The translations under genes were made by a program, and so were the position numbers. From the IMG/VR virus record IMGVR_UViG_3300047159_000064: a DNA stretch of 34,050 nucleotides; one strand, written 5' to 3'. Each line of letters begins with the position of its first letter. Within the stretch, counting starts at the first letter, position 1. Under the pieces are notes generated by a model that did no database searches, had not been told where the DNA came from, and was given only the letters and a program-made list of their open reading frames with translations. Source of the stretch: a virus. Its lineage: Duplodnaviria > Heunggongvirae > Uroviricota > Caudoviricetes. Positions 1 through 26,438 of this stretch are shown here, piece after piece.

Positions 1-165
1 AAAGCCGACGGCTGAGCCGACGGCCTAGATGGAGCGCCTGATGGATCCCGACACCACACTGTCGCTTTGGAAGAGCGACGTACTTCCTTTATACTACAGA
101 CGCAAACAAAGCCGCGCAGACATCTCTGTCAAGCGCGGCCAAGCTGATGCTGGTTTTAAGCCTTA

Positions 166-645
166 TTAGGCTTTTTTGACAGATTCTTTGTTCGAAAAGT
201 CGGACGCTTCGGCGATATCGGCCTTAATCGTCTCCTTACGAGAATTTAGCGCATCATATTCGCTGTTGAGCAACGCTTTCAAGCGATCGATGGTCGCGAT
301 GGCGGTCTTGATGCCTCCGCGAGCGGCGATATTGCCTGCCAATTCTGCGCGAAGAGAGGCGATCTCGCGACCTGCCTTTTCGTCGTAGACATCAGTCGGC
401 GATACGACGGCGATGCCCTTTGTGCATCCGGTGACGTCATACTCCAAGGCGCTGAGCGCCGAGCTGAGGATGTCGCGATCGTGGTTGAACTCGTCGATGG
501 CATGCCCTTCTAAGGTGTAATTGCCCAAAACAACAGTGGTAACATTATTAGTGAAACCGCTGTCGTCTTTGTAGCGATAAAGCTTCGTGGCGTGCGTGCG
601 CGACGTCTTGATAGCTTTCATAGTAATCTTCTTTTTCTTGCTCAT
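166..645 (-). CDS. Phage hypothetical protein
   Basis: ORF-track frame; likely start ATG 645 after AAAGGA RBS; ends TAA TAA; has a G-x-A-x(4)-D-x-YDEKAGREIA segment common in phage proteins. Confidence 0.8.
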   Translation of the reverse strand: MSKKKKITMKAIKTSRTHATKLYRYKDDSGFTNNVTTVVLGNYTLEGHAIDEFNHDRDILSSALSALEYDVTGCTKGIAVVSPTDVYDEKAGREIASLRAELAGNIAARGGIKTAIATIDRLKALLNSEYDALNSRKETIKADIAEASDFSNKESVKKA

Positions 646-680
646 AATAAGTGTTCCTTTCATGTTATTTTAACAAGATT

Positions 681-756
681 TGGTCGCGGGGGCTGGATTC
701 GAACCAGCGACCTTCTGGGTATGAACCAGGCAAGCTAACCTCTGCTCTACCCCGCA
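681..756 (-). tRNA. tRNA-Met(CAT), initiator-like
   Basis: Cloverleaf, anticodon loop TT-CAT-AC, encoded CCA; GCGGGG/CCCCGC acceptor like fMet, but U1.G72 and only two G-C pairs at the anticodon stem base. Confidence 0.85.
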
Positions 757-811
757 ATATATATTATTATACGCCGTTTCTTTTGAAACAGCCGCATAAT
801 CTCATCTGATA

Positions 812-890
812 TGGTGCCTTTCCTGGGATTCGAACCCTCAACCTAGCGGGTAGAAACCGCTTGCTCTGAATCCAATTGAGCTATGGAGGC
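812..890 (-). tRNA. tRNA-Arg(TCT), probably degenerate
   Basis: D arm and anticodon arm AGCGG-TTTCTAC-CCGCT intact; 3 acceptor and 2 T-stem mismatches caused by one 5-nt block. Confidence 0.65.
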
Positions 891-894
891 AGTT

Positions 895-970
895 TGGACT
901 CCTTGCAGAGATTTAAACTCTGATCACAGACTTAGGAGGTCTATATCTTATTCAGTTAGAAGACAAGGAG
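895..970 (-). tRNA. tRNA-Arg(CCT), AT-rich divergent
   Basis: Perfect CTCCTTG/CAAGGAG acceptor, T-CCA end, loop CT-CCT-AA; non-canonical T loop TTTAAAT and D loop. Confidence 0.7.
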
Positions 971-1081
971 ATTTTTCTAAGAAGGAACTCGCATAGGTAA
1001 TTTTGTCCATCGCACTAATGTAATCTTAGAAAAAATGCTACATGGCTTAACCACATAGCATTTTAATTGCATATTTTTTTA

Positions 1082-1180
1082 AGAAACTGGGCAATTAACT
1101 TTTGTGGAAGCCATGATCAAATGAACCAAATCTCTTTGGTTTTTTCTACTTTTAATGTTTTTTCTGTTCATTTGCATCAT
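1082..1180 (-). CDS. Possible 33-aa small ORF (MMQMNRKNIK...); the TAA stop extends to 1079
   Basis: Strong AAGGAG RBS and TATACT -10 upstream; no recognisable homology. Confidence 0.3.
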
Positions 1181-1233
1181 AGCTTTTTCTCCTTTAGTAT
1201 AACATTTTTGCAAATTTTGCATTTTTGTAACCA

Positions 1234-2067
1234 TTAACTATTTCTTTTAAATACGTGTTTACCTAAACTATCTTTATAATAACTAACTGTATCTTTAATT
1301 TGATGTCTAGTTAAGCCAGTAAATTTCTCTACTTTTGCTTGCCAACCATACTTGGTTAAATCAATTCCAGAATTTATTATTAATTCCTTTCTTCTTTCTA
1401 ATTCTTTAAAGCCAAGCTTAGTAGAAGTTATTTTTCCTTCTTTATCAACTTGCCCATTATTAATTTTTTCAATTAATTCGGCTGGCTGATGCTTATAAAT
1501 TCCTTGGTGCGAGGTAGGAGATTTGAACTCCTGCTCTATTTTAGAAGCAAGGTTTGAGCTTGCCGCGTCTACCAATTCCGCCAACCTCGCTTGTTTTTCA
1601 AGACGTTGTTGATGAGTTTTAACATTTTTGCCACAAAAATTTTCAGTAAATGCATGACAATTTGGGCAGAGAATTTGCAAATTATCTAATTGATTATTTA
1701 ATTTATCTCCATCAATATGATGTAATTCTAATGGAGCTTCTTTATCTAACCAATGTGTAATTCCGCAGCATTCACAACGTTTTTCCTTGTAGCCTTCTTT
1801 AAATAATTTTTCTTTTAAAGTGCCAGATTTAATTTTACTGCCATACTTTAGATAATTTATAGCTGGAATATATTCATGCCCACCCTGTTTCTGTTCTGCT
1901 GTTCTTTTTCCTTGTTGACCTCTGTAATTAATATTTAATTCTTTTAAATACTTAACCAATGTTTCTTGTTTACAATTTAATTGCTTTGCAATATTACAGA
2001 GTGGTTCATTTTTAGCAACTAGCTCTAATATTTTATCTTTTTGGCTTAAAATATCTTTTCTATTCAT
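1234..2067 (-). CDS. HNH homing-type endonuclease
   Basis: CECCG...ELHHIDGDKLNNQLDNLQILCPNCH zinc/HNH motif; HTH-like N-terminus; AT-rich; likely start ATG 2067 after AGGAG. Confidence 0.9.
   Translation of the reverse strand: MNRKDILSQKDKILELVAKNEPLCNIAKQLNCKQETLVKYLKELNINYRGQQGKRTAEQKQGGHEYIPAINYLKYGSKIKSGTLKEKLFKEGYKEKRCECCGITHWLDKEAPLELHHIDGDKLNNQLDNLQILCPNCHAFTENFCGKNVKTHQQRLEKQARLAELVDAASSNLASKIEQEFKSPTSHQGIYKHQPAELIEKINNGQVDKEGKITSTKLGFKELERRKELIINSGIDLTKYGWQAKVEKFTGLTRHQIKDTVSYYKDSLGKHVFKRNS
1505..1590 (-). tRNA. tRNA-Leu(CAA), nested inside the HNH ORF
   Basis: GCGAGGT/ACCTCGC acceptor, A-CCA, Leu-type D loop GGCGGAATTGGTAGACGC, GCAAG-CTCAAAC-CTTGC anticodon arm, long variable arm. 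Confidence 0.9.
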
Positions 2068-2146
2068 AAATACTCCTATTATATTAAAATTTAGCAAATA
2101 TTTGGTAGAAGTATTTACAAATTTTCAATTGCCTCTGCCAGTTGGA

Positions 2147-2443
2147 TTAGAAAGGCAGCTTCATCTCAGGCGTTCCGCCCGATACCGTCTTTATGCCCAA
2201 TCCGCACAACGTTATGCTGCTGATGTTGCTTTCCACGTAAGACGGGATGACATGGCTTTCGTCGCATACCGTTCCGTTGATCGTCATCTTCACAGACGCG
2301 CCGTCTAAGCACAGCCACTTGTTGGCCAGATCCACAGGCGTCATCGCCGAGATGATTATCTCGTAGTCCGAGAAATTTCCAGGCATCGCGTCGCCGTCTT
2401 TCATGAATACCGACGACGTTCCTTTTATGGCTATTCTGTACAT
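2147..2443 (-). CDS. Hypothetical protein
   Basis: 98-aa ORF, AAGGAG RBS, TAA stop. Confidence 0.8.
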   Translation of the reverse strand: MYRIAIKGTSSVFMKDGDAMPGNFSDYEIIISAMTPVDLANKWLCLDGASVKMTINGTVCDESHVIPSYVESNISSITLCGLGIKTVSGGTPEMKLPF

Positions 2444-2463
2444 TAGCTATCTCCTTGCGATTT

Positions 2464-2539
2464 TGGTGGGCTGAGTTAGAATCGAACTAACATGTGCGGT
2501 TTTTCAAACCGCTGCCTTGACCACATCGGCCTCCAGCCC
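2464..2539 (-). tRNA. tRNA-Phe(GAA)
   Basis: Cloverleaf, GCGGT-TTGAAAA-ACCGC, CCA. Confidence 0.85.
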
Positions 2540-2544
2540 AAATT

Positions 2545-2627
2545 TGGTGGGTCGGGAGGGATTTGAACCCTCACCCTTTCGGACACGCTTCTGAGACGTG
2601 CGCGTATACCTGTTCCGCCACCGACCC
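2545..2627 (-). tRNA. tRNA-Leu(CAG)
   Basis: Cloverleaf with long variable arm, CT-CAG-AA, CCA. Confidence 0.93.
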
Positions 2628-2635
2628 AATTTTTG

Positions 2636-2800
2636 TGTGGTTCCCAATGGGGAATCACTGAGGGTGTTCCAGAGCCAGCCTATTCCATAGAGATCGCAAC
2701 TTTTGGAAGCGGCTTATATAAGAACTCTGTAGCCGGTTTCGGATGCAATCCTCCCATGCCGGCATGGTACTCTGAACCTGGTTGCGACCAGGAAACATTC
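2636..2800 (-). ncRNA. Unnamed structured RNA spacer containing pseudoknot motif copy A
   Basis: No credible ORF; multiple hairpins; shares the AGAGTA-pseudoknot motif with three other spacer sites. Confidence 0.5.
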
Positions 2801-2804
2801 GTTT

Positions 2805-2880
2805 TGGTCCCCCGTGACGGGCTTGAACCGTCGACCCCTTGATTAAAAGTCAAGTGCTCTACCACTGAGCTAACGGAGGG
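2805..2880 (-). tRNA. tRNA-Lys(TTT)
   Basis: Canonical cloverleaf, CT-TTT-AA, CCA. Confidence 0.95.
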
Positions 2881-2889
2881 TATCGACGA

Positions 2890-2971
2890 TGGTGCCCGAA
2901 GGGAGACTCGAACTCCCACCCTCGCGGATGCGCACCTCAAGCGCACGCGTATACCATTCCGCCATTCGGGC
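2890..2971 (-). tRNA. tRNA-Leu(GAG)
   Basis: Cloverleaf, TT-GAG-GT, long variable arm, CCA. Confidence 0.93.
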
Positions 2972-2978
2972 AAATTAG

Positions 2979-3090
2979 GCCAAGCTATTAAGGTGCTCTG
3001 CCACTGAGCTACGCCCCCATGCTGTTGGGAGCGGCGAGAATCGAACTCGCGACCACCTGGTTAAAATCCAATGAAATAAGCGTTGGCTCT
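2979..3090 (-). ncRNA. YrlA/Y RNA-like RNA with a circularly permuted tRNA-like domain
   Basis: 5'->3' order: T arm (GCGAG-TTCGATT-CTCGC), loop-closed acceptor-like stem (CGCTCCC/GGGGGCG), D arm (GCTC-AGTGGCA-GAGC); ends close as GCCAA-C-GCT/AGC-TTGGC with a bulged C. Confidence 0.8.
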
Positions 3091-3091
3091 A

Positions 3092-3167
3092 TGGTGGACC
3101 TTAAGGGGCTCGAACCCTTGACCTCCTCCATGCCATGGAGGCGCTCTCCCAACTGAGCTAAAAGCCC
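3092..3167 (-). tRNA. tRNA-Ala(GGC)
   Basis: Cloverleaf, G3.U70, AT-GGC-AT, CCA. Confidence 0.93.
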
Positions 3168-3169
3168 GA

Positions 3170-3922
3170 CTCAAGAGAGCTTGCGTTCGGTCCTTAGGCC
3201 GACAACAATTCTTAGGCTCTCTCTAAACTGCTTTTTGTTCAAGCAGATGAACTCTAGCCAGCGATAGGCCGTTGGCAGACCGCCCTTTGACGTTAGGCGC
3301 TTTGTTCGCGCACGTTCTGCGAATGGGACCCTCGCCGAACGGCCTTATTTCAGGCCGCCGGGTAAACATAGCTTTGTTATCTTGTTTACCGACGCAACGT
3401 TATCCCGTGCGTCATAGGGGGAAGTTTTTACGCGCACTTCCAACGATAGGGCTATAACCATGTTGAACCCCTGATGGATTTTTTAACGACTTATCATGTC
3501 GATATCGCAGACCGGGTAAACCGGTCTTGACGTCATTGTTTTAGAATGAGCGATATTCGGCGTCGCCCATTCCAGCGGCTTAACCCTACCGCGGGACTCA
3601 TTCGCGCGAATCGCTTCGCCGAACGATATGGTTTTTAGCCTTGCGGCAAGAGGTTCAAATACCATTCCTCTGTTTTCTTCGGGTCTCTCCCGCTCCGTTC
3701 GTACGTTAGGAGACGCTGTATTAACCTGCCTTACGACAGGATATAGCCTTAGATTCGGTCTTCAGCGGATATCGCCGCCGCGGACTACCGAAAGCCGTTG
3801 CCTTATCTGCTGGCTTGCGCCTTCGATTAGACACCGCCATTACTTTCCCGCTGGCTGAAGGACGAGGCCCTTCGAACGCGCCGATCGAGCGCTTAGGCAG
3901 GCAATCAGGTTTCCCCGACCGC
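3170..3922 (-). ncRNA. Candidate large ornate ncRNA (GOLLD/ROOL-like)
   Basis: ~750 nt between tRNAs with no credible ORF; dense hairpins with GNRA loops (GGC-GCAA-GCC, GCC-GCAA-GGC, CCTGTC-GTAA-GGCAGG); family assignment from recall only. Confidence 0.5.
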
Positions 3923-3924
3923 CG

Positions 3925-3999
3925 TGGTGGAGCTTATCGGAATCGGACCGATGACCTCTTCCTTGCGAAGGAAGCGTTCTCCCCCTGAACTAAAACCCC
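3925..3999 (-). tRNA. tRNA-Ala(CGC)
   Basis: Cloverleaf, G3.U70, TT-CGC-AA, CCA; T loop variant TCCGATT. Confidence 0.88.
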
Positions 4000-4001
4000 A
4001 T

Positions 4002-4314
4002 TGGTGGAGTGACTTTCGTGAAATCACCCCGTGGAATGACTCGCTGTTTCTGCCAAGGCTACCTTGCGGCCGACTCTTGCACATCGCGACCGTTACCTCG
4101 CCTTTTCGGCTACAGCAGCTCAGCCGTCGCGCCTTTGGAGGCTCCCACAGACGGCGTGGTACTCTAATACCGCCGGTGCAACGGCGGAATTATTCTAAAC
4201 ATAACCGTGTTTCTCTCGACAGGACGATTAATTATTTATCTTTATGCGCACATGGCGTGCGCACTCGGGCTCTCACCGAGATATCCTGCATCCTGAGATA
4301 GTGATCGTAACCCC
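4002..4314 (-). ncRNA. tmRNA-sized RNA with Ala-acceptor-like ends (atypical)
   Basis: Starts GGGG, ends CTCC-A-CCA (G3.U70 possible), 313 nt, contains a pseudoknot; no canonical T arm or recognisable tag peptide. Confidence 0.4.
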
Positions 4315-4327
4315 TAGGCGTTTATGT

Positions 4328-4404
4328 TGGCGGGACCTATGGGACTCGAACCCATGACCTTCGCAGTGACAGTGCGACATTCTAACCAACTGAACTAAAA
4401 TCCC
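4328..4404 (-). tRNA. tRNA-Asp(GTC)
   Basis: Cloverleaf, CT-GTC-AC, G-CCA. Confidence 0.93.
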
Positions 4405-4672
4405 ATTTGGTTTTGAAAGTTTTCCTTCTTTACCGCCAACTCCCGTTATTCGCTGCAAGCGCTCGGCATAAGTTATAGGCGGATTTCGGCTGTTTTAACA
4501 TAAGCGACGCGACTCTGTTTTTGCAGATTATGGCTTCTGACGCATGTGCCAGAAACTCATCGCAGACTCGGCCTTATGACGCAGTTAGCATTTCGACAGC
4601 CGTTGGATCTTCGCTCAGAGCATGCCCGTAAAACGAAGCTCCTTCTCAGGTTTAACCGGTTTTCCTTCCGGA
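4405..4672 (-). ncRNA. Unnamed putative structured RNA spacer
   Basis: 268 nt non-coding; long-range stems CGGCTGT/ACAGCCG, CCGCC..AACT/AGTTGGCGG, CTTCG/CGAAG. Confidence 0.35.
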
Positions 4673-4755
4673 TGGTGTCTGAGGCCGGAATCGAACCGGC
4701 ATGGTTTCCCGTGGCATTTTAAGTGCCATGCGTATACCGGTTTCGCCACTCAGAC
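4673..4755 (-). tRNA. tRNA-Leu(TAA)
   Basis: Cloverleaf, CT-TAA-AA, long variable arm, CCA. Confidence 0.93.
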
Positions 4756-4759
4756 GTTC

Positions 4760-4835
4760 TGGTGCCCACTGACGGGTTCGAACCGCCGACCCACTGATTA
4801 CAAATCAGTAGCTCTTCCAGCTGAGCTAAGAGGGC
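4760..4835 (-). tRNA. tRNA-Thr(TGT)
   Basis: Cloverleaf, TT-TGT-AA, CCA. Confidence 0.94.
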
Positions 4836-5382
4836 AGTATGCCAAGCGCTGTTTCATTGTAGAAAAGACTTGGCCGGAAAACAAATTCAATGCGCCTGAC
4901 TTTTAGCGCTCACCTCTGCAAGGCAAGCTACACAGCGACGCATACTAGTCCGCAACAATTGTCATCTCTCTCCTGCGGACGGAATACTCTATAACCGCGT
5001 TGCAGCGCGGATATATTCTAATGGTGGGCTGCTTCTACGTCGGAGAACCTCCCAAAAGAGTGTTCATTGCCGGTCAGCCGCCATATCCTCTCTCCGCTCT
5101 TGCAAGAGCTTTGATACCTTCTGGCCTTACCGACGGCGTAGCCATCGATGCTCGGTTCGCTCCCCCGACGGCGGGGTACTCTGATAACCTGTTGCAACAA
5201 GATTACATTCGGACTCAAGGGAGGAATTAAGAGCTTGCGCTCTTATCCTCCAGCAGGGTATGGCTTTCCATTTTCGCCCGTTAACGCTCATACGGTATTG
5301 GGCAGCTTCTGCTTCTGTCTTTCGACAAGGTGTGAATGCCGTTATTGTTACCTATCATAACCCTTTCGGGATATAACCTGAC
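4836..5382 (-). ncRNA. Unnamed large structured RNA spacer with pseudoknot motif copies C and D
   Basis: ~545 nt non-coding; GNRA hairpins (CCC-GAAA-GGG, TGTC-GAAA-GACA, AAGAGC-GCAA-GCTCTT). Confidence 0.5.
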
Positions 5383-5459
5383 TGGTCCTTCAGGAGGGAT
5401 TTGAACCCCCGACCCCGGCCTTATAAGGACCATGCTCTAACCAGCTGAGCTACTGAAGG
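5383..5459 (-). tRNA. tRNA-Ile(TAT)
   Basis: CCTTCAG/CTGAAGG acceptor, A-CCA, loop CT-TAT-AA. Confidence 0.85.
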
Positions 5460-5523
5460 ATACTTAATATTATACGTTGACGTTATCAGTATTTTTTAAT
5501 GATTCGACGATATCTTATCATAT

Positions 5524-5551
5524 TGGCTTCCGAGGCTGGATTCGAACCAGC
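5524..5551 (-). pseudogene. 3' fragment (T arm + acceptor strand + CCA) of an interrupted Gln-like tRNA
   Basis: GCTGG-TTCGAAT-CCAGC-CTCGGAA-G-CCA; acceptor strand matches the 5' piece at 6548-6554. Confidence 0.7.
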
Positions 5552-5745
5552 GCTCTTTGTGCTATGAACTAAGATATATATATATATCAAACTGCTCCAC
5601 CCAGCAATATCAATAAAAGTTCCAGCTTGACCTTACCAAGCCCCTCATATTTTTGAGTTTGCAACCTCTAAATATGCATGCCACAGCTTCCAGCACTTTG
5701 GAACTAATACATTATACAATGTATTTTATTAGTTATTAGCAAATT

Positions 5746-6474
5746 TTAATTATAAAGTTCAGTTATTTTAGATACTTTATAATTTTCTAAAACATACCTT
5801 ATACACGGTTTAATATCTGTTCCATATAAAACTTGTATACTTTTTCCAGATTGTCTAACTGCAGCATATTTTAATTGGTCTTTTTCAACTTCTCGGCCCT
5901 TTATTTCAATATACTGCCCGTCAACAATATAATCTGGAGTGTAATAATGAGTTTTACCCTTATACTTGTATTTGAATCTATCAGTACAACGGCTTATTTG
6001 CTTATTATTATCTTTACAATAGATATAATAAGCTAATTCCCAAGTAGACATATGATATATTCCATCATATCAGCCACCCTTACTATGTAAATTTCTAGGA
6101 TTATCAGAATGATTATAATTTAATAGCTTTTCTGAAATAAGAGCTTTCGTTTCTTCTGATAAATGTTTTCCAGTCATTGGTCCAGGATGAGTCTCATAAA
6201 ATTTTTTCTTTCCTTCTGAGATCTTTTTAATTACATCGCTAGTTTCTGCAGTTAGTCCTTTTGCTCAATTTTTGCCCCTGCCTGTATATCTATTGTTATG
6301 ATTATTTGGACCACAATGAGCTAAATGATATTTTAAACGTGTCCAATAAAATAACTTATGACATTTTGGACACTCTACCTTAACATTAGTTGGATTTAAC
6401 TCACACGCTTGAATATGCCTTGCCAATTTCTGCTTTGTTTCAAATTCTTTGCTACAATACTTACACTTATACAT
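5746..6474 (-). CDS. Zinc-finger/NUMOD3-like/PD-(D/E)XK homing-type endonuclease, 242 aa with two in-frame TGA
   Basis: Track ORFs 6265..6474 and 5746..6051 are one frame joined by TGA at 6267-6265 and 6072-6070; CKYC..HIQAC, CPKC..HLAHC, GKHLSEETKALIS, YTPDYIVDGQYIEIKG. Confidence 0.85.
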
Positions 6475-6521
6475 AATTAAATGCTCCTTATATATTATAC
6501 ATTTAATTTAGCATATTTTTT

Positions 6522-6554
6522 AAGTCCCGTGCCTTACCGCTTGGCTACTCGGAA
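6522..6554 (-). pseudogene. 5' half of an interrupted Gln-like tRNA
   Basis: TTCCGAG-TA-GCC-AAGCGGTAA-GGC-A-CGGGA-CTT, then AT-rich sequence. Confidence 0.7.
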
Positions 6555-6567
6555 ATAATTCTATCGG

Positions 6568-6900
6568 CTAGAAGCTCATCTTCCTGAGCTCTTCCGCCAA
6601 ACGATTCTTTCTGGCTTTAAGCGTGTCTATCTCATGGTCTATGCCGCGTATCTTGCTTTTTATCTTATTCATATCTATAATCAGCTTCGCACGCTCCAGA
6701 TCGCCGTCGCTGGATATTCGCTCGAACTCTGGAGCGTCGCTGACGTACAGCCACGGATTGCTGCTGCGGCCGCCCATGTCTATGTAATCGTCGCCGAAGT
6801 AATCTACGCAGCGCTTCGGCTTCTTGAACACTTTGATTATCTCTGAGCCGGAAGCGACCATATCGCCTTTGCTCAGGCTCATAAGCTCTTCTATCGTCAT
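6568..6900 (-). CDS. Hypothetical protein with C-terminal coiled coil
   Basis: 110-aa ORF, AAAGGAG RBS, TAG stop. Confidence 0.8.
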   Translation of the reverse strand: MTIEELMSLSKGDMVASGSEIIKVFKKPKRCVDYFGDDYIDMGGRSSNPWLYVSDAPEFERISSDGDLERAKLIIDMNKIKSKIRGIDHEIDTLKARKNRLAEELRKMSF

Positions 6901-6922
6901 AGGTCGCTCCTTTCTATTGCGC

Positions 6923-6998
6923 TGGTGCCGATTGGTGGATTCGAACCACCGACCTATCGCTTACGAGGCGATTGCACTTCCAGCTGTGCTAAATCGGC
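6923..6998 (-). tRNA. tRNA-Thr(CGT)
   Basis: Cloverleaf, CT-CGT-AA, CCA. Confidence 0.93.
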
Positions 6999-7000
6999 AG

Positions 7001-7075
7001 TGGTGGGCGCTGAGGGGTTCGAACCCACAACCCCCTCGGTGTAAACGAGGTGCTCTCCCGTTGAGCTAAGCGCCC
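7001..7075 (-). tRNA. tRNA-Val(TAC)
   Basis: Cloverleaf, TT-TAC-AC, CCA. Confidence 0.92.
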
Positions 7076-7194
7076 ATGCTTTTTATTATACGCCGCGGAT
7101 CGCGCTATTCCCGATAAAAATAAACGGGCCGCTTTCCAGCAGAGCCCGTTTATCGCGCTTTCGCGCATCGACATGCTTTTATCTTAAGTATGCT

Positions 7195-7326
7195 TTATAG
7201 ATGGGTCTCCGCGCCTTTCGAGCCTAACTCGACGGCGGCTGTTTGCGTACGATCAAATATCGCGGTTTGTCCTACAAATTCGCGGTCTTTAAGATCATAT
7301 ATTCGCAAAGCTTCAGAAATCATCAT
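7195..7326 (-). CDS. Small hypothetical protein (43 aa, MMISEALRIYDLKDREF...)
   Basis: Open frame immediately after a GCTAAATT motif; TAA stop followed by a terminator-like hairpin. Confidence 0.5.
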   Translation of the reverse strand: MMISEALRIYDLKDREFVGQTAIFDRTQTAAVELGSKGAETHL

Positions 7327-7387
7327 ATTTAATTTAGCCTATTTATTTTTATTTTTTAATTATTTCGACATATTTCGTCAAAACGAC

Positions 7388-7485
7388 TGGCAGGAGCGGA
7401 AGGTGTCAAGCCCTCATAACTAAGGATGGACCCCTAGCTCACGATTTTGAAGATCGTTTCCATCGTCGGATGGTAAGACGCTCCT
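7388..7485 (-). tRNA. Opal-reading tRNA(TCA) with Trp-type acceptor and long variable arm
   Basis: AGGAGCG/CGCTCCT, G73-CCA; ACGAT-CTTCAAA-ATCGT; D stem CCATC/GATGG with 4-nt loop; 8-bp variable stem; T arm GAGGG-CTTGACA-CCTTC. Confidence 0.82.
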
Positions 7486-7498
7486 ATTAGGCGAACGA

Positions 7499-7693
7499 TT
7501 ATCTGCCTGATTGCTTTTCAGCTTCGGCGACAGACGCTTCGTATCATCCTATAAGCTCTTCGCAGGATTCGGCTATGAGACGCGCTTCCGTCAATTTGAT
7601 AACGGAAGGCGCGTCTAAGTCATATTCTTCTTTGAGCCTATCAGCGCGTTTTAGCAGAAGCGCGACCGAAGCGGCCTCGCTCTGCTTAGGCAT
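7499..7693 (-). CDS. Small helical protein (64 aa) with in-frame TGA at codon 50
   Basis: ATG overlaps the end of the upstream gene; frame continues ...EELIG[TGA]YEASVAEAEKQSGR-TAA. Confidence 0.5.
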
Positions 7694-9650
7694 TAAGCTT
7701 GCCCCCGTTTACCAAGGCGACAAGCTTCTCGAGCTCCCAGGTTCTCACGACGGTCTGGCCTTCCTTAGGAGTATACGTGTTGCTGAACACGATGGTGGCG
7801 TCTTCCGGCTTGACCACGCTGTATTCGCTGCGCAAATCGGCGACCAAGCCGCAGTTGAACTCGAGCGACGAATCGCTCATGTAGCGCATTACGACTTTGA
7901 GATCCTCAGGGCAGAGCACAAGGTTGTTGGCGTCGCGGATCATGTTGAGCATGACCACTTCGTTCTTCTCCAAGTCGAACGCGAACGCGATGCAGGCACG
8001 AGAATCGCCCTTGACCTGGAACTGGAACTCGATGTTCTTCGGATCCCAGGCTCTCGTCGCCAGGTTCTCTTTGTTCTGATAGCCGCAGAAGATCTCGCCT
8101 TCGTTGAGATTGGAAGCGAAGCCGTTAAAGGCCTGAATGACGTACTTATAGCCCTTGGCCTTGAGCTCAGAGAGCTTGAGATCGTAGTATTCGGATCCTG
8201 CGGCGTCGCGGCAGTCGCCTGAGAACATGATGGATAAGCCAAACGGCTTAGCCGCATAGTTATAGAAGCCGATCGTCGACACGTCGCCGTTGTCCTTGAC
8301 CAAAATCAAGGAAGAGTCGATGTCGAAAGCGTCTTTCCAATAAACGAAAGTGCGGATGTTGTCGTATCGGCACGGCAAGCGCGATCCGGTAGGAACGACG
8401 TCGATTCCTTTGCCGCCGGTCGAGGTGTTAGAAGGAATGCCGATCTTGTAGAATTCGTCAGACACGTAAGATTTGCCGATAGACGGCATAGCCGCGAACG
8501 CGTCCTTGACCTTCTGGCCGACCAAGTCGTGCAAAAGCTTCTTCGTCGAATCGTTGAGCTTGGATTTTCTCCAGGTGCTCTCGTAATCCGTTTCGATGTG
8601 GCGCTTCATGCGGTTGTTCTTAAAGAACGCGAACGTGCGAGGTCCTTCTTTGTCTTCAGACAAAGTAGAGACCATCTGGTAGAGAACGATAGGATTCTTC
8701 GCCGGAATCAAGTCTAAGATCTTGCCCGCTTCGATAGGATTGGCTCTCGAAAGCAAGTATTTGATGTTTCTCTGAAGCAACGAGCCATTGTGCGCGTAAA
8801 CCTGAGCGGCGCCGTAAACGTCTCCAGCGCGCATCTTGGCTTCGGCGAGCTTGTACGGAGAATTCGCGTTCGTCGCGACATTGGCCTTGACGCCGCAAAG
8901 GCTGCCGATCTTATTGTAGTATTTAGCCTGCTTTTTGGTGAGCGGGCAATCGTGGACCAAAGGATAGCATTCCTTGATGAGCTCTAGGTCGGTGCCTGAA
9001 TTCGCTTTCTTGTAATCGAATTTCTTGCAGTCGCCAAACATCGAAACAGAGAGCTTGACTAAGTCTTTCTTATCTAAGAAGCGCGCGAATTTGACGTTCT
9101 TTCTCAAAAGAGCAAAAACGTTTTCGCGGCACTTGATTTCGGTGCCTTTGTAATAGCCGTTTTCGAACAGCCATTCGAATTCGGCCTGCTCCTGGAGCCC
9201 AAACGGACGGGTATAGGCGCAATAAGAATCTGCCACGCCGCAAAGAATCTTCGTGGCTTCGTCCATCGTGACGATCTGGAACTCGCGGAGCTTCAATTCG
9301 TCGCCGACTTTGTATTCCGGCAGATCCTTGGCGTAGAGCTTGATGCGGTCGTAATAGCCGACGGTCTCCACCGCCAAATAAGAGACGAGCTGCTCGACGA
9401 GCAATTCGTGTCTAGTGTAGTATTTGGTGTCCTGCGGATTGGCGTAGAAGCTCGCCGGAACGTTGAGCTTGAACTCTCCGGAGATGATTTTGACCATCCC
9501 TTCGCTCAAAAGCTCAGGATGATTAACGACGACCCCGAAGTTGGCCAAAAGATACGCGTTGTAATAAGCGCTCTTTGCCTTATCGATTTGCGCGCCGTCC
9601 TCCAATAAGTAGTGGCGAGCAAACAGCAACTTGTCCATCGTAGATTCCAT
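7686..9650 (-). CDS. Large alpha-helical + C-terminal TerD-like domain protein (candidate RNA-binding partner of the Y-like RNAs)
   Basis: C-terminal RTFVYW...DIDSSL...FSGD...GSEYYDL...FCGY pattern resembles TerD-like folds; N-terminal ~400 aa look helical; no vWA DxSxS motif. Confidence 0.7.
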   Translation of the reverse strand: MESTMDKLLFARHYLLEDGAQIDKAKSAYYNAYLLANFGVVVNHPELLSEGMVKIISGEFKLNVPASFYANPQDTKYYTRHELLVEQLVSYLAVETVGYYDRIKLYAKDLPEYKVGDELKLREFQIVTMDEATKILCGVADSYCAYTRPFGLQEQAEFEWLFENGYYKGTEIKCRENVFALLRKNVKFARFLDKKDLVKLSVSMFGDCKKFDYKKANSGTDLELIKECYPLVHDCPLTKKQAKYYNKIGSLCGVKANVATNANSPYKLAEAKMRAGDVYGAAQVYAHNGSLLQRNIKYLLSRANPIEAGKILDLIPAKNPIVLYQMVSTLSEDKEGPRTFAFFKNNRMKRHIETDYESTWRKSKLNDSTKKLLHDLVGQKVKDAFAAMPSIGKSYVSDEFYKIGIPSNTSTGGKGIDVVPTGSRLPCRYDNIRTFVYWKDAFDIDSSLILVKDNGDVSTIGFYNYAAKPFGLSIMFSGDCRDAAGSEYYDLKLSELKAKGYKYVIQAFNGFASNLNEGEIFCGYQNKENLATRAWDPKNIEFQFQVKGDSRACIAFAFDLEKNEVVMLNMIRDANNLVLCPEDLKVVMRYMSDSSLEFNCGLVADLRSEYSVVKPEDATIVFSNTYTPKEGQTVVRTWELEKLVALVNGGKLNA

Positions 9651-10791: not shown

Positions 10792-11136
10792 CTATGCGCT
10801 ATGGGCGCCAGAATCGGCTTTCCTGTCTTCATCGTCGTCGTCTTCGACGTCGACTGAGTCTTTGGCCAAGGTGACGCACATTCTACCGTCGTCTACGCAG
10901 AACCCGCTTATCTTGCGGCTTAGAAGCTCCGGGCTAAGCACCGTGTCCAGCGGATCCAAGTCATCGGCGAAATCGGAAATGCCGAAATCGAACCAGTGAT
11001 TGAGATCGTCGGCGTTATAGTAGATTCTCACGATAGAAGAGCTTTGCTTGACGGTGCCGTTCTTGTCAAGCTGAACCTCTTTGAACATGAAATACGACAG
11101 AAATACGTCTAAGCTAACAGTCGCTGTCTTATCCAT
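10792..11136 (-). CDS. Hypothetical protein, acidic tail
   Basis: 114 aa; TAATG overlap with the upstream gene. Confidence 0.8.
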   Translation of the reverse strand: MDKTATVSLDVFLSYFMFKEVQLDKNGTVKQSSSIVRIYYNADDLNHWFDFGISDFADDLDPLDTVLSPELLSRKISGFCVDDGRMCVTLAKDSVDVEDDDDEDRKADSGAHSA

Positions 11137-13349
11137 TATCGTTCGCCTCCCAGGAACCGGTCTCTCAGACTGATGATATCAGTCTTATAAGGATATTCCT
11201 TGGTCTCCTTGTTTCTGTCTTTATCATACAGCTTTCTGCAGAATCCGTAAAACGCGTTCTCCAATGAGTTCTGCAATGCGCCAGTTTTGGCGTAATAGCC
11301 GCAGCGAAGCGTCTGGTCGGCGACGCTGCGAAGTTTCTTCCATTGGTTGTAATAGCCTGTTTTGCACTTGGTCATGAAGCCATCGGAATCGACGAAAACG
11401 AAGCCTTCGATGTATCTGCCTTCGTATTTGTAGTCTTCGCTCTGCATGCCGGAGTAGACGCTCAAGAACTGATCCCAGTCCTTTAGTTCGAACGCTTTCT
11501 CTTTGACGCTGCAGCCGATCTTGTTATCGGCGAAATCCTTAAGATCGCTGTACGGAACTGTGCCGTATTCAAGCTTGTTGTAGATGCCGTCAAGCAATAC
11601 GATGTTGTTTTTGGCGTACTTGATGATATGAGGGTCATGCTCGACGTCCTCGCACTCGAACACCAGCGAGAGATCTGAGCCGCTTTCGTGATAATAGCGA
11701 AGGTACTTAAGCAAATTAGCATAATAAGGCTCAAGCTGCGCTCTGATGTATCCGGCGAAATCTCCGCCCGTCGTCGACTTAGACGCGATAAACAGGCTGT
11801 CGTTTCTGTAATCATAGGACACGATGGCCAAGAATCCGTTCTCCTTGACGTACGCGGTCACCGGGAATTTAAGCTTCGTGCGCAAAGCGCAGAGCTTAGT
11901 CTCAGCTGTTTCGTCGATGCGGAAAAACTTCTCGTAAGAGCGCGCCATGATTTTCTTATTCGTGACATCGATGAACAAGCCTCTGGCGAGAATGGTCTGC
12001 TTGTTCCAATTGCCCTGCCAGAAAGCGTCGCGGGTGAAATTGAAAGACGAAACGTCGGCGTCGAGGTGCTTTTCCTGGACGCAGTCGTTGTTGCGCAAAT
12101 ACGCGATGGCGTCTTCAACCGTGTCGACCTTGCGCTGCGTCGTGTCTTCGCTCTCTGTCACCGGCTGGCAGTCGTCAAGCTCGACGACGGTCCATTTCAG
12201 GTCCGCGGTCAATTCTACCAAACGGAGCTTGCCGCCGAATTCGACGCCGCCTTCGAGATTGAACACCCTGTCGGCGATCTGCGTCGGATCGTCGAAAACG
12301 TTGCGATGCGCATGAACCTGGAACTGATTGTCTTTGGAATCGCGCATCCAGACTTCGGCGATGGTCTGGCTGTCTTTGACGTCTCCGACGCCGTTGATGA
12401 AATCTTTCGTAGGAAGATACACCAAATTGTCTTTCATCGACGGAATGCCGCCGTGGCAAGCCAAAATCTCCAACCCGTTGTAAGTGAAATGCGACATCTG
12501 GCGGCATTTGCGATAGAGCATTCTCGCGTCTTTCTCGCTGATCCCGCCGGCGACGAGCTGCGGCTTCGTCTTCTGCTCGAATTCCAAAGAGGCGGCTTTC
12601 GCCGAATTGCCGAAGTCGCGGATGCTGACGTCGTGATTGCCTTCGAGCAGGCAGACGTTAGGCTTATTCATGATAGAAATGAGCCAGCGAACGACCTCGG
12701 CGTTCTGGTTGCCGCGATCAACGTAATCGCCTAAAAAGATATACTCGGTGTCGTCGGCCAAGCCGTTTTTGAAATACTGCATGGCTGTGTCGTAGCAGCC
12801 GCGGAGGCTTCCGACGAAAACGATTTTCTTGTACTGCGACAGATCGAAGCTTTTCTCAAGAACGGCGTCAAGCTCGTCAGGCTTAATAACCTTGATGCTG
12901 CCTGGTACCTTCTGAGTGGCGAATCTAGCGTAGATGTTCTCGATGCTGTCATCTGGCACCCATTTGTATTCCGGGCGCATTTTGTTGCGCTTAAGGCATT
13001 CGTCGAGCGGCACGCCGGTGAAATCTACGCAGAAAACATTGTACCGATACTGTTCGGCCAAATCTTTGTATTGCTGGATGTCTTTGGTCTTAGACGCGGT
13101 GGCGTCGATGACCGTGAACTCGCCTTTGCTCATGCGGTAATCGAGCATCTCGAAGAGAAGCTTCCATACCTCTGTCTCAACCTCGCGGTTGCGGCCGATC
13201 GAAAACGTGCCGTCGGCTTTCATGTCGATGGAGCTGCAAAGCACGCGAAGATCGTCTGGGCACAGCGTGTACTGCTCGAGATGATGCTCTTTGACCCAGG
13301 TCGATTTTCCTGCGCCAGGCGCCCCGCGAAGAATAAGCAATGTTCTCAT
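11136..13349 (-). CDS. Pnkp-like polynucleotide kinase / metallophosphoesterase / Rnl1-type RNA ligase fusion
   Basis: N-terminal GAPGAGKST P-loop and DAT motif; GDYVDRG and GNHD calcineurin-like motifs; C-terminal KENGF (KxxG) and EGFV..KCK ligase motifs. Confidence 0.92.
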   Translation of the reverse strand: MRTLLILRGAPGAGKSTWVKEHHLEQYTLCPDDLRVLCSSIDMKADGTFSIGRNREVETEVWKLLFEMLDYRMSKGEFTVIDATASKTKDIQQYKDLAEQYRYNVFCVDFTGVPLDECLKRNKMRPEYKWVPDDSIENIYARFATQKVPGSIKVIKPDELDAVLEKSFDLSQYKKIVFVGSLRGCYDTAMQYFKNGLADDTEYIFLGDYVDRGNQNAEVVRWLISIMNKPNVCLLEGNHDVSIRDFGNSAKAASLEFEQKTKPQLVAGGISEKDARMLYRKCRQMSHFTYNGLEILACHGGIPSMKDNLVYLPTKDFINGVGDVKDSQTIAEVWMRDSKDNQFQVHAHRNVFDDPTQIADRVFNLEGGVEFGGKLRLVELTADLKWTVVELDDCQPVTESEDTTQRKVDTVEDAIAYLRNNDCVQEKHLDADVSSFNFTRDAFWQGNWNKQTILARGLFIDVTNKKIMARSYEKFFRIDETAETKLCALRTKLKFPVTAYVKENGFLAIVSYDYRNDSLFIASKSTTGGDFAGYIRAQLEPYYANLLKYLRYYHESGSDLSLVFECEDVEHDPHIIKYAKNNIVLLDGIYNKLEYGTVPYSDLKDFADNKIGCSVKEKAFELKDWDQFLSVYSGMQSEDYKYEGRYIEGFVFVDSDGFMTKCKTGYYNQWKKLRSVADQTLRCGYYAKTGALQNSLENAFYGFCRKLYDKDRNKETKEYPYKTDIISLRDRFLGGER

Positions 13350-18376: not shown

Positions 18377-19672
18377 CTAAAAGTCAGCCGTTTCTTTGTC
18401 AGGCCTGAAATCCCTGAACACCGGGAACCTCAGGCTGCTGCCGCCGTCGGCGTTAGTCGTCTCCTCGAAATACTGCACCTCTATTATCGTGCCTAGGTAT
18501 CTGCCTTTGTTGGCCCAGATATCGGATCTCTGCTCGTCAGAGAACCCTGATCCGACCTTCACGGTCTGCCCGTCTTTGTATCTGACCAAAGCCGCGCCAA
18601 GCGTCCCAGCCAGCCTTCCTGAGCCTTCTTCGAATCCGGTCAGCTCCATGTCGTACGATTTCATCAGCTTCACCTTAAGCAGATCCGACGTGCGCTTGAA
18701 TCTGTACGGCGCCGAGCATACGTTTATCATGACGCCTTCTTCGCCGTGCGCCACGTTGTAGTTAAGCCATTTGATTATCTGAGCCGCGTCGTCGCCTCTG
18801 TAAAGCACGGGAAGCAGATCGAAGAACACGTGCTTCGACGAGCCGAAGAACGAATCAAGGCTCTTTCTGCGATCGTCGTACGGCGTGTCGCAGCTCTGAG
18901 ACACGAACTCGTCGGCAGTCAGCATGTCGAACACGAGCATCTTGACGCCGTGCTTGACGCCGTCTTTGCGCGTTATCATCATCGTCCGCTTGTACTGATC
19001 CTTGCTAGTCAGCGCGCCTTTGTCCAGCAGCGTTATCTCGCCGTCTAGGCAGATGTCGTCTTCAGGCGACGCCTTAAGCTCTTCTTCCAGATCGACGAGC
19101 CCTTCGTAGCTTTGGCCTGCCCTTGTGTAGAAGCTGACTTCGCCTTTGCGCTTGAGCGCTATGATTCGCCCGCCGTCTATCTTCGTAGTAAGCGCGAACG
19201 TCTTGCCTTCGACGCTCTCAGGCCGCTCGAAGTATTTGTTCGCCAGCTGGACCGAGAACGTAGGCACCAATCCCGGCAGCGCCTTGTTTATGCCGTCTGC
19301 GCCTATGCCGAGCGGAAGGTTCTTCGATATAAGCTTCCTGAAGAAGCATACCAACTCTTGATCTCCGCCCAGGACGGAGGACTCGAATTCGCGCAGCGAC
19401 GCCACGATGGCGTCAGATCCGCCGTTGTTGGCTTTGAGGAAGTCCAGCGCATCGAGCGTCGACTTCAGATGCGCAGCCGGTACAGCCGCGGTATCCTTCG
19501 CGGCTTTCTTGTCCGATATGCCCGTTACGACGTAAGGGTTAAAAAGAAAAGACAGGCATCTCACGACGTCGCTGTCATTCTTGTATTTCGCCAAAACGGC
19601 CTGTTTGCTGATCTGCGAATTGCTCGCCGTCATCTCGTCTGCGAACGCCTTGAATCTCTTGAGTGTTTCCAT
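18377..19672 (-). CDS. ATP-dependent DNA ligase
   Basis: KIDGGR (motif I), LDGEI, VFDML, EGVMI, LLKVK, C-terminal OB fold ending SLRFPVF. Confidence 0.95.
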   Translation of the reverse strand: METLKRFKAFADEMTASNSQISKQAVLAKYKNDSDVVRCLSFLFNPYVVTGISDKKAAKDTAAVPAAHLKSTLDALDFLKANNGGSDAIVASLREFESSVLGGDQELVCFFRKLISKNLPLGIGADGINKALPGLVPTFSVQLANKYFERPESVEGKTFALTTKIDGGRIIALKRKGEVSFYTRAGQSYEGLVDLEEELKASPEDDICLDGEITLLDKGALTSKDQYKRTMMITRKDGVKHGVKMLVFDMLTADEFVSQSCDTPYDDRRKSLDSFFGSSKHVFFDLLPVLYRGDDAAQIIKWLNYNVAHGEEGVMINVCSAPYRFKRTSDLLKVKLMKSYDMELTGFEEGSGRLAGTLGAALVRYKDGQTVKVGSGFSDEQRSDIWANKGRYLGTIIEVQYFEETTNADGGSSLRFPVFRDFRPDKETADF

Positions 19673-25667: not shown

Positions 25668-26438
25668 TTAGTCCTCCGGCTGGGCGATCAGCCTCTCGAT
25701 GTAATCCCTGCCTTCTTCGACGAACCGAGGGATCTCGAGGTCGATGACCCACTTGCCAGACGCGTCTCTTACGGCGCAGCATCCGCGCTTCTCGCACGTC
25801 GGCAGCTCGCCCCAGACGACGCCTTTGGATTCCAGCATCGACTTCTGCTCTCTGACGCTCTTGCCTTCAAGCTGCTTCTGGGAGAACAGCGCCTGGGCGT
25901 TTGACGAGACCGAGTTGCGCTCGGCGTCGATCTGCCGCCAAAGCACGCAGTTCGTGACTTCTTCCTTGGGGACGTTGAACGCCCTGGAATCGAAGTAAGC
26001 CCCTGAGGCCAGAGCCTTCTGATACGCCGGCTCGCACTCGAGATCGCCTTTGGCCATAGCCGCGGCGTGGAGCTCGGCGAAGACCCGGTTGAATTCCATC
26101 GCCGCCAGAGAGGCGGACACCGAGACGACCTTCTGGACGTCGTATCCGAACCAGGCCTCCGTGGTCAGCGTCGCGTAGTCCGTCAGCACGAGCGTGATCT
26201 CGTCCGACTGCGTGTATCCGAGCACGCACCCCTGGACGCTCTCGCAGAGGAAAAGCATCGTCTGCCGCATGGCTTCCGCCAGAAGCGGATCGCACGGCTT
26301 CTTGAACCCCCTCGCGTAAGTGTGGAAGTGGCAGCCGTCAAGCCTGATTATCACAGGCGTCCGCCTCGTCAGCTTCGGCTTGTTGGCCCCTTCGTAGCAC
26401 TCCTTCATCCTGTCGCCCAATTGATCCAGCATCGGCAT
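25668..26438 (-). CDS. thg1: tRNA(His) guanylyltransferase Thg1-like protein
   Basis: RMKECYE, IIRLDGCHFH, GYTQSDEITLV, FDSRAF, WRQIDAERNS hallmark motifs. Confidence 0.93.
   Translation of the reverse strand: MPMLDQLGDRMKECYEGANKPKLTRRTPVIIRLDGCHFHTYARGFKKPCDPLLAEAMRQTMLFLCESVQGCVLGYTQSDEITLVLTDYATLTTEAWFGYDVQKVVSVSASLAAMEFNRVFAELHAAAMAKGDLECEPAYQKALASGAYFDSRAFNVPKEEVTNCVLWRQIDAERNSVSSNAQALFSQKQLEGKSVREQKSMLESKGVVWGELPTCEKRGCCAVRDASGKWVIDLEIPRFVEEGRDYIERLIAQPED

Follow-up and report, generated by a model that had tools for sequence, protein, structure and literature searches.

The window, i.e., the whole analyzed stretch of 34,050 nucleotides from a virus of the Caudoviricetes (IMG/VR record IMGVR_UViG_3300047159_000064), is tRNA-rich: ARAGORN identified 16 tRNA genes, all on the minus strand. 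It probably belongs to a large phage. DNA nearly identical to the window was present in wastewater and bioreactor-sludge metagenomes. Near the tRNA array, the minus strand also carried an RNA-repair and tRNA-maturation kit, consisting of a Pnkp-like RNA ligase (11136–13349), an ATP-dependent DNA ligase (18377–19672), and a tRNA-His guanylyltransferase (25668–26438). In addition, two tRNA-like sequences on the minus strand were not called by ARAGORN: an element at 33–103, which scored 42 bits with Rfam, and a degenerate sequence with a T-loop motif at 2975–3065, which was spotted by eye between tRNA-Leu(GAG) and tRNA-Ala(GGC). Moreover, the array contained a split nuclease gene at 5746–6474 (minus strand), whose Zn-finger and PD-(D/E)XK-like parts were found in two separate ORFs. 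Both parts matched PHROG 15137, and the gene is probably a decayed homing endonuclease gene.

The HNH endonuclease gene of this study is located at 1234–2067 on the minus strand. Its AT-rich ORF ran from 2067 to 1234 over 277 codons without a stop. The ATG at 2067 was taken as the start codon, because it has a Shine-Dalgarno sequence and agrees with the N-termini of the homologs; the alternative was a TTG at 2097. The predicted polypeptide of 277 amino acid residues comprises an HTH-like N-terminal domain, a Zn-binding HNH domain, a linker encoded by a tRNA gene and a C-terminal helical domain. PF01844 (HNH) scored above its cut-off, and the match to an HNH PHROG spanned residues 69–273. In the HNH core (residues 98–138; 1654–1776, minus strand), C98, C101, H116, H117, N125, N129, C134, C137, and H138 were invariant in the alignment. 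The C-terminal domain (residues 215–277, 63 amino acid residues; 1237–1425, minus strand) was also found in homologs without the tRNA segment. When modeled alone, it folded into four helices and was HTH-like by weak fold matches only: the best VIA structure comparison for this domain had a Z of 5.7, and the HTH clusters of the ESM Atlas at 0.85 are a lead only. With Foldseek, neither model had a match at E<=0.001.

The AT-rich leader of the gene (2068–2124, minus strand) contained a conserved TTTGCTAAAT-type motif, an inverted repeat, and the Shine-Dalgarno sequence within a predicted hairpin, which may act as a translational brake. The TTTGCTAAAT-like motif and the inverted repeat were conserved upstream of the start codon in the window (2068–2145) and in L001, L004, L007, L009, L114, and L198. 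One arm of the inverted repeat resembled a tRNA D-loop, and the leader is a candidate operator or promoter. A sigma-70 promoter scan upstream of the nuclease gene found nothing above chance.

Inside the nuclease gene, ARAGORN identified a long-arm tRNA-Leu(CAA) gene of 86 nt with an encoded CCA (1505–1590, minus strand). It occupied codons 160–188 in phase 0, with its first base at codon position 1, and possessed an intact anticodon loop, A73, and a long variable arm. Rfam RF00005 scored it at 54.1 bits (gathering score 29; E 1.3e-10), although a fast gathering-threshold Rfam scan of 1–8000 missed it. The preliminary description, which had placed a complete tRNA-Leu(CAA) on the same strand and in frame inside an HNH gene, was thus confirmed by the open ORF, ARAGORN, and Rfam. 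Its residue numbers (170–198), however, were counted from the TTG at 2097 and were replaced by those counted from the ATG at 2067. The nested gene formed a 51% GC island in a surrounding gene of 26–30% GC. It was the sole tRNA-Leu(CAA) gene of the window, in which TTG codons were common (95 of the 572 leucine codons in long ORFs). A single predicted transcript therefore encodes both the 277-residue HNH protein with two HTH domains and the tRNA. AlphaFold pLDDT was 80–90 for the domains and 42–49 for the tRNA-derived peptide, as expected for a linker, and in the model the tRNA bases appear to be read as a low-confidence linker that joins the nuclease to the tail domain. Regarding RNA, the raw reads of run X21 gave one read, which lay off the nuclease gene, and the record from run X15 is a contig that may be DNA.

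An allele without the nuclease gene was found in that X15 contig (record 15), which matched the window at 99+% on both sides and joined position 837 to 2133; this empty allele is one contig with a depth of 6.7 from one run. The joint held 27 other bases, and the rebuilt sequence was a perfect 77-nt short-arm tRNA-Leu(CAA). By comparison with the empty allele, nt 1–24 of this resident tRNA remain in the window as a 5′ remnant just upstream of the nuclease gene (2133–2156, minus strand), and nt 52–77, from the T arm to the CCA, remain as a 3′ remnant (812–837, minus strand). In the window sequence itself, which is independent of the reads, the two remnants paired at 7/7 acceptor positions, compared to 4/7 for the tRNA-Arg chimera described below. 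Thus, a cassette of 1,295 nt (838–2132, minus strand; joint 837>2133 in X15) replaced the 27-nt anticodon arm of the resident tRNA-Leu(CAA), and the nested tRNA replaces the gene of the same anticodon that was destroyed. The earlier expectation that the element spreads together with a tRNA was borne out; that the tRNA is mere useful cargo was not, given that it substitutes for the resident tRNA-Leu(CAA) lost to the insertion.

The cassette contained the nuclease gene with its nested tRNA-Leu(CAA), a small ORF, tRNA-Arg(CCT) (895–970, minus strand; seen with ARAGORN and by comparison with the empty allele) as co-converted cargo, and part of tRNA-Arg(TCT). Because the cassette also holds these two, its right end is regarded as a co-conversion boundary. 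The so-called tRNA-Arg(TCT) (812–890, minus strand; Rfam 35 bits) is a chimera, in which a donor Arg 5′ part (838–890) is fused to the Leu 3′ remnant within the T arm. It had three acceptor and two T-stem mismatches, as its 3′ end belongs to the Leu remnant, and is probably non-functional. The left crossover was in the shared D-loop and the right one in the T arm, with short stretches identical between donor and recipient at both. At the left end, bases 2125–2132 (minus strand) came from the donor and form the tail of an older, broken 5′ half of a tRNA-Leu: L200 and L203 have identical bases behind other 5′ halves, and L201 has a variant of them.

Further observations concern the same region. 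In run X13, two deletion alleles, each on one contig, were found: one lacked 795–1053, by which both Arg genes and the 3′ remnant were gone, and the other lacked 1861–2127, by which the leader and the first 69 codons of the nuclease gene were gone. Bacterial tRNA-Leu is typically not short-armed. Short-arm (77 nt) phage tRNA-Leu genes were found in L196 (4578–4654 and 5698–5852), L213 (683–759), and the empty allele, and in the window a long-arm tRNA-Leu replaced a short-arm one.

That the empty allele is a spliced RNA was ruled out, because the window lacks the 27 extra bases; their nearest match there was the anticodon arm of the nested tRNA itself (2 mismatches in 17). For the same reason a group I intron could not restore the tRNA by splicing, as the missing 27 nt include the anticodon. 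Rfam identified tRNAs only, with no self-splicing intron, and the protein family scan found no intein family. Furthermore, the cassette contained no integrase-sized ORF beyond the HNH gene and no att duplication, and its target was destroyed instead of rebuilt.

The broken tRNA genes around related loci also varied. L205 had the same chimeric 3′ end as the window and L206 the same 5′ remnant. At the same spot, L200/L203 and L201 had other tRNA-Leu-like 5′ halves that ended at the anticodon loop, and L004 had an orphan fragment from T arm to CCA just downstream. Three different 5′ halves hence preceded the gene, those of the window, of L200/L203, and of L201, suggesting different recipients and repeated entry into different resident genes.

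The full-length homologs identified by protein search were 96, 63, 64, 60, and 47% identical to the protein of the window, and all possessed the tRNA-derived peptide. Other homologs (P0007, P0008, P0009, and P0011) had the same two flanking domains without this peptide. The alignment of homologs hence contained forms both with and without the tRNA segment, and supported the earlier claim of a real tRNA within a real, conserved nuclease ORF. In the linker of the tRNA-less P0007, no trace of a decayed tRNA was found, as 725 of 1000 shuffles scored as well. At the same place as in the window, ARAGORN identified nested tRNA-Leu with the anticodon CAA in L001, L004, L007, L200, L201, and L203, with TAG in L009 and L114, and with TAA in L198. 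The reading frames of L009, L114, and L198 require that TGA is read as Trp. In every locus seen, the nested gene was the sole copy of its anticodon. Two further loci had a nested tRNA-Leu between an HNH core and a Zn-ribbon/HTH tail: L064 (3001–3813), from a phage in which TAG is recoded to Gln, with a tRNA-Leu(TAG), and L213 (230–988) with a short-arm tRNA-Leu(CAA). No close relatives of the nuclease locus were found in IMG/VR when searched by protein and DNA pattern. In GTDB, two matches to the tail domain were found, neither with nesting, and in cultured phages the core alone was matched, with no record covering 80% of the query.

Comparisons among the nested loci suggested that the tRNA segment and its flanking protein domains evolve under different constraints. 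In nine nested tRNAs, 97.2% of the cells paired and 15 of the 24 pairs had double-sided changes, while slid controls paired at 36–52%; none of 500 shuffles reached this pairing, although part of the covariation signal is that of three clades, and, as sequence pairs and loci are not independent, significance is lower than the shuffle and binomial values indicate. When five non-independent pairs were pooled, pS was 0.05 for the tRNA and 0.53, 0.54, and 0.42 for the three domains, i.e., about tenfold lower in the tRNA. The pN/pS values were 0.30 for the N-terminal domain, 0.11 for the HNH domain, 0.34 for the tail, and 1.15 for the tRNA. Given a pS of 0.05 together with a pN/pS of 1.15, the tRNA segment is constrained as RNA and not as codons. 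It is very unlikely, in our view, that the cloverleaf persists because of a role at the level of DNA or structure instead of decoding, such as a homology arm, a self-binding site, an RNA decay signal, or a decoy for anticodon nucleases. Crossovers do fall in conserved tRNA motifs, and peptide-level changes in P0259, P0260, and P0264 may damage the tRNA, as read from the proteins. However, compensatory pairs were present in all five helices, the anticodon loop, A73 and CCA were intact, the nested gene was the only copy of its isoacceptor in the loci seen, and TTG codons were common in the long ORFs of the window.

Conservation of the frame downstream of the tRNA, the lack of which would have spoken against the preliminary description, was also found. 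Despite indels, which were triplet-only, the nuclease and the tail were in one stop-free frame in every nested locus, including L004, which kept the frame through a 28-codon deletion, and the tail was under purifying selection. These results bear on the possibility that the tRNA is real and the fused protein is not made, whether because expression is limited to the HTH-HNH part or absent altogether, or because the tail is translated on its own once processing has occurred. The processing of a tRNA necessarily cuts an mRNA that contains it, and many relatives were only about 150 amino acid residues long and ended before the tRNA, both of which favor this possibility. Nevertheless, we consider it highly improbable in view of the conserved frame and the constraint on the tail. 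Moreover, no start codon after the CCA was conserved among the nested loci, L004 has few codons there, and the tRNA-less homologs fuse the same two domains. Overall, both layers, RNA and protein, look selected.

The HTH-HNH core was 42% identical to HegA/F-TflIV of phage T5 over residues 3–155. In the 124 non-redundant loci of this family, 90 had a flanking tRNA gene, which was tRNA-Leu in 72 of the 90. Leucine accounted for 63% of the flanking tRNAs, compared to a background of 19% in the same loci. Many members ended at or inside a downstream tRNA-Leu, which was abutted in all three phases. In the T5-like phages S124 and Slocum (L209:1201–1730 and L211:1201–1736, respectively), the stop codon of the HNH gene fell within the initial 9 nt of a tRNA-Leu(TAG) in the same phase, an arrangement that resembles a precursor state in cultured phages, and L177 read through the tRNA and stopped three codons later. 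Given that members stop at or inside tRNA-Leu and that L177 reads through, a common state of the family would need only one stop loss and one junction to become nested. The term "engulfed" used in the preliminary description is therefore better replaced: the tRNA does lie inside the gene, most likely because a stop codon disappeared from a gene of a family that normally ends at or just inside tRNA-Leu, and a tail domain was joined.

The same findings favor a reading in which the dual coding is real and incidental: a stop codon was lost beside a tRNA-Leu, the linker was tolerated, entry occurred by ordinary recombination between tRNA genes or at the cut of another nuclease, and nesting brought no advantage. 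The abutment in all three phases, the stops in S124, Slocum, and L177, the tRNA peptide without constraint at the protein level (the pN/pS and pLDDT given above), and the presence of the second, split nuclease gene in the window are all consistent with it. However, the repeated insertion into the Leu genes of various recipients, the strong Leu bias, the intact and conserved active site, and the long persistence and several origins of nesting argue against it, and we regard this reading as rather unlikely. As to phase, the fetched loci contained 200 distinct tRNA-Leu genes, of which only 69 were free of stop codons in the nested phase, and phase 0 was found in 9/9 nested copies checked and in two further ones. 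With roughly one tRNA-Leu gene in three open in that phase and all copies in phase 0, in-phase nesting exceeds chance.

In a quick tree of the nuclease core, a single clade uniting every read-through form was rejected (AU p 0.025). This result and the differing tails and tRNA classes suggest that nesting probably arose more than once, with at least two or three origins. For the main nested group, support values of 61/33 neither established nor rejected monophyly. Decay alleles were also found. In P0248, P0253, and P0255, the protein breaks off within the HNH region, and some proteins terminate at residue 105 or 126, with the tRNA part kept. L201 and L202 have a TGA at codon 106, which is either a stop or Trp, and L201 keeps the tRNA. 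These alleles, together with the X13 contig that lacks 1861–2127, fit a selection for the tRNA that outlasts selection for the nuclease.

The best reading of these results, which we consider probable, is a free-standing homing endonuclease of the HNH family, of the same type as T5 HegA/F-TflIV, that targets tRNA-Leu genes and carries an inseparable replacement tRNA in frame. It is supported by the empty allele, the 7/7 pairing of the remnants, the differing recipients, the covariation, the pS and pN/pS values, the kept frame, the Leu bias, and the decay alleles that keep the tRNA. Counted against it is that hegA of T5 itself does not adjoin tRNA-Leu. Moreover, nesting is not required, because the tRNA-less full-length homologs persist. 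Homing endonucleases normally survive in important genes by riding introns or inteins. According to the proposed mechanism, the protein would have cut the tRNA-Leu gene resident in a related or co-infecting genome, and the cassette would have been copied during repair. The nested, diverged long-arm tRNA would restore the lost anticodon and would itself be a poor substrate. With the replacement tRNA inside the ORF, recombination could not part it from the nuclease, and a clean deletion of the element would cost the phage its tRNA-Leu(CAA). This would be a non-splicing way to render the insertion harmless, doing the job of an intron or intein. RNase P and 3′ processing would cut the mRNA at codons 159/160 and 188; each transcript would yield either tRNA or protein, and the nuclease would be kept scarce. 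Such down-regulation, which had also been proposed in the preliminary description, is expected from tRNA biology.

A broader proposal, to which we give an even chance, is that of a recurrent, splicing-free selfish class, in which a homing endonuclease neutralizes its insertion into a tRNA gene via an in-frame replacement tRNA, the nuclease is locked to a needed RNA, and tRNA maturation sets its dose; this class would have evolved several times, in phages with three genetic codes. The locus would represent a third survival route, with alleles from before and after: to destroy the target tRNA and carry a spare inside the ORF. It would also help to explain the reshuffling of phage tRNA arrays and their broken and chimeric tRNAs, and offers a clear example from nature of selection acting on an RNA structure and on a protein in the same bases of one strand. 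Furthermore, annotation pipelines that drop overlaps between CDS and tRNA will miss one of the two genes.

HegA is the H-N-H endonuclease F-TflIV of T5 and BF23 (GenBank AJ604530 and AY734508; PMC5714182). Similar to the nuclease of the window, it possesses an HTH and an HNH core and is encoded by a free-standing gene in a phage tRNA cluster. Different from it, however, HegA has another C-terminal domain and no nested tRNA, follows tRNA-Ile/Met, and breaks no tRNA gene. SegB of T4 is also free-standing, cuts tRNA genes, and spreads with the flanking tRNAs (PMC2330249; PMC13096335). It is a GIY-YIG enzyme with an intergenic gene, recognizes a universal T-arm motif, and shows no isotype preference among neighboring tRNAs, whereas the nuclease of the window is of the HNH type, Leu-biased, inserted inside a tRNA gene, and contains a replacement tRNA. 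Similar to the Seg, Mob, and F-Tfl nucleases, it has an intact nuclease domain under purifying selection, no intron or intein, and a cognate allele without the gene (one contig). Their usual intergenic position, which spares host genes, is not shared by the window element, which splits a tRNA gene and nests the replacement. The processing of tRNA precursors as a brake was already proposed for segB and the F-Tfl nucleases of T5 (PMC2330249), and this old proposal of tRNA processing throttling tRNA-cluster nucleases becomes directly testable with the nested gene.

In the literature, where subscription papers were thinly covered, no nested or replacement tRNA in a phage endonuclease was found. 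The one published bacterial precedent found for a nested tRNA is purely terminal: selC (tRNA-Sec) is nested in the selB ORF of Alphaproteobacteria, which was described as the first case of a tRNA nested within an ORF of bacteria, and tRNA processing was proposed to repress the protein (Mukai, 2021; PMC8124441). Similar to the nested tRNA-Leu(CAA), selC is a whole tRNA in an ORF of the same strand, in frame from base 1. Different from it, selC forms the C-terminal extension of a housekeeping factor, its cognate translation factor, whereas the tRNA of the window is an internal linker before a conserved 63-residue domain, in a nuclease of a mobile element, and compensates for a destroyed gene. 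Finally, group I introns occupy the anticodon loops of tRNA-Leu genes. Integrative elements rebuild tRNA 3′ ends, e.g., at attB of Cluster J phages (PMC3706429). Similar to both, the window element is mobile DNA whose presence in a tRNA-Leu gene costs the host genome nothing. Different from both, however, it has no ribozyme, integrase, or att duplication; it removes 27 nt of its target and brings in a complete new tRNA.
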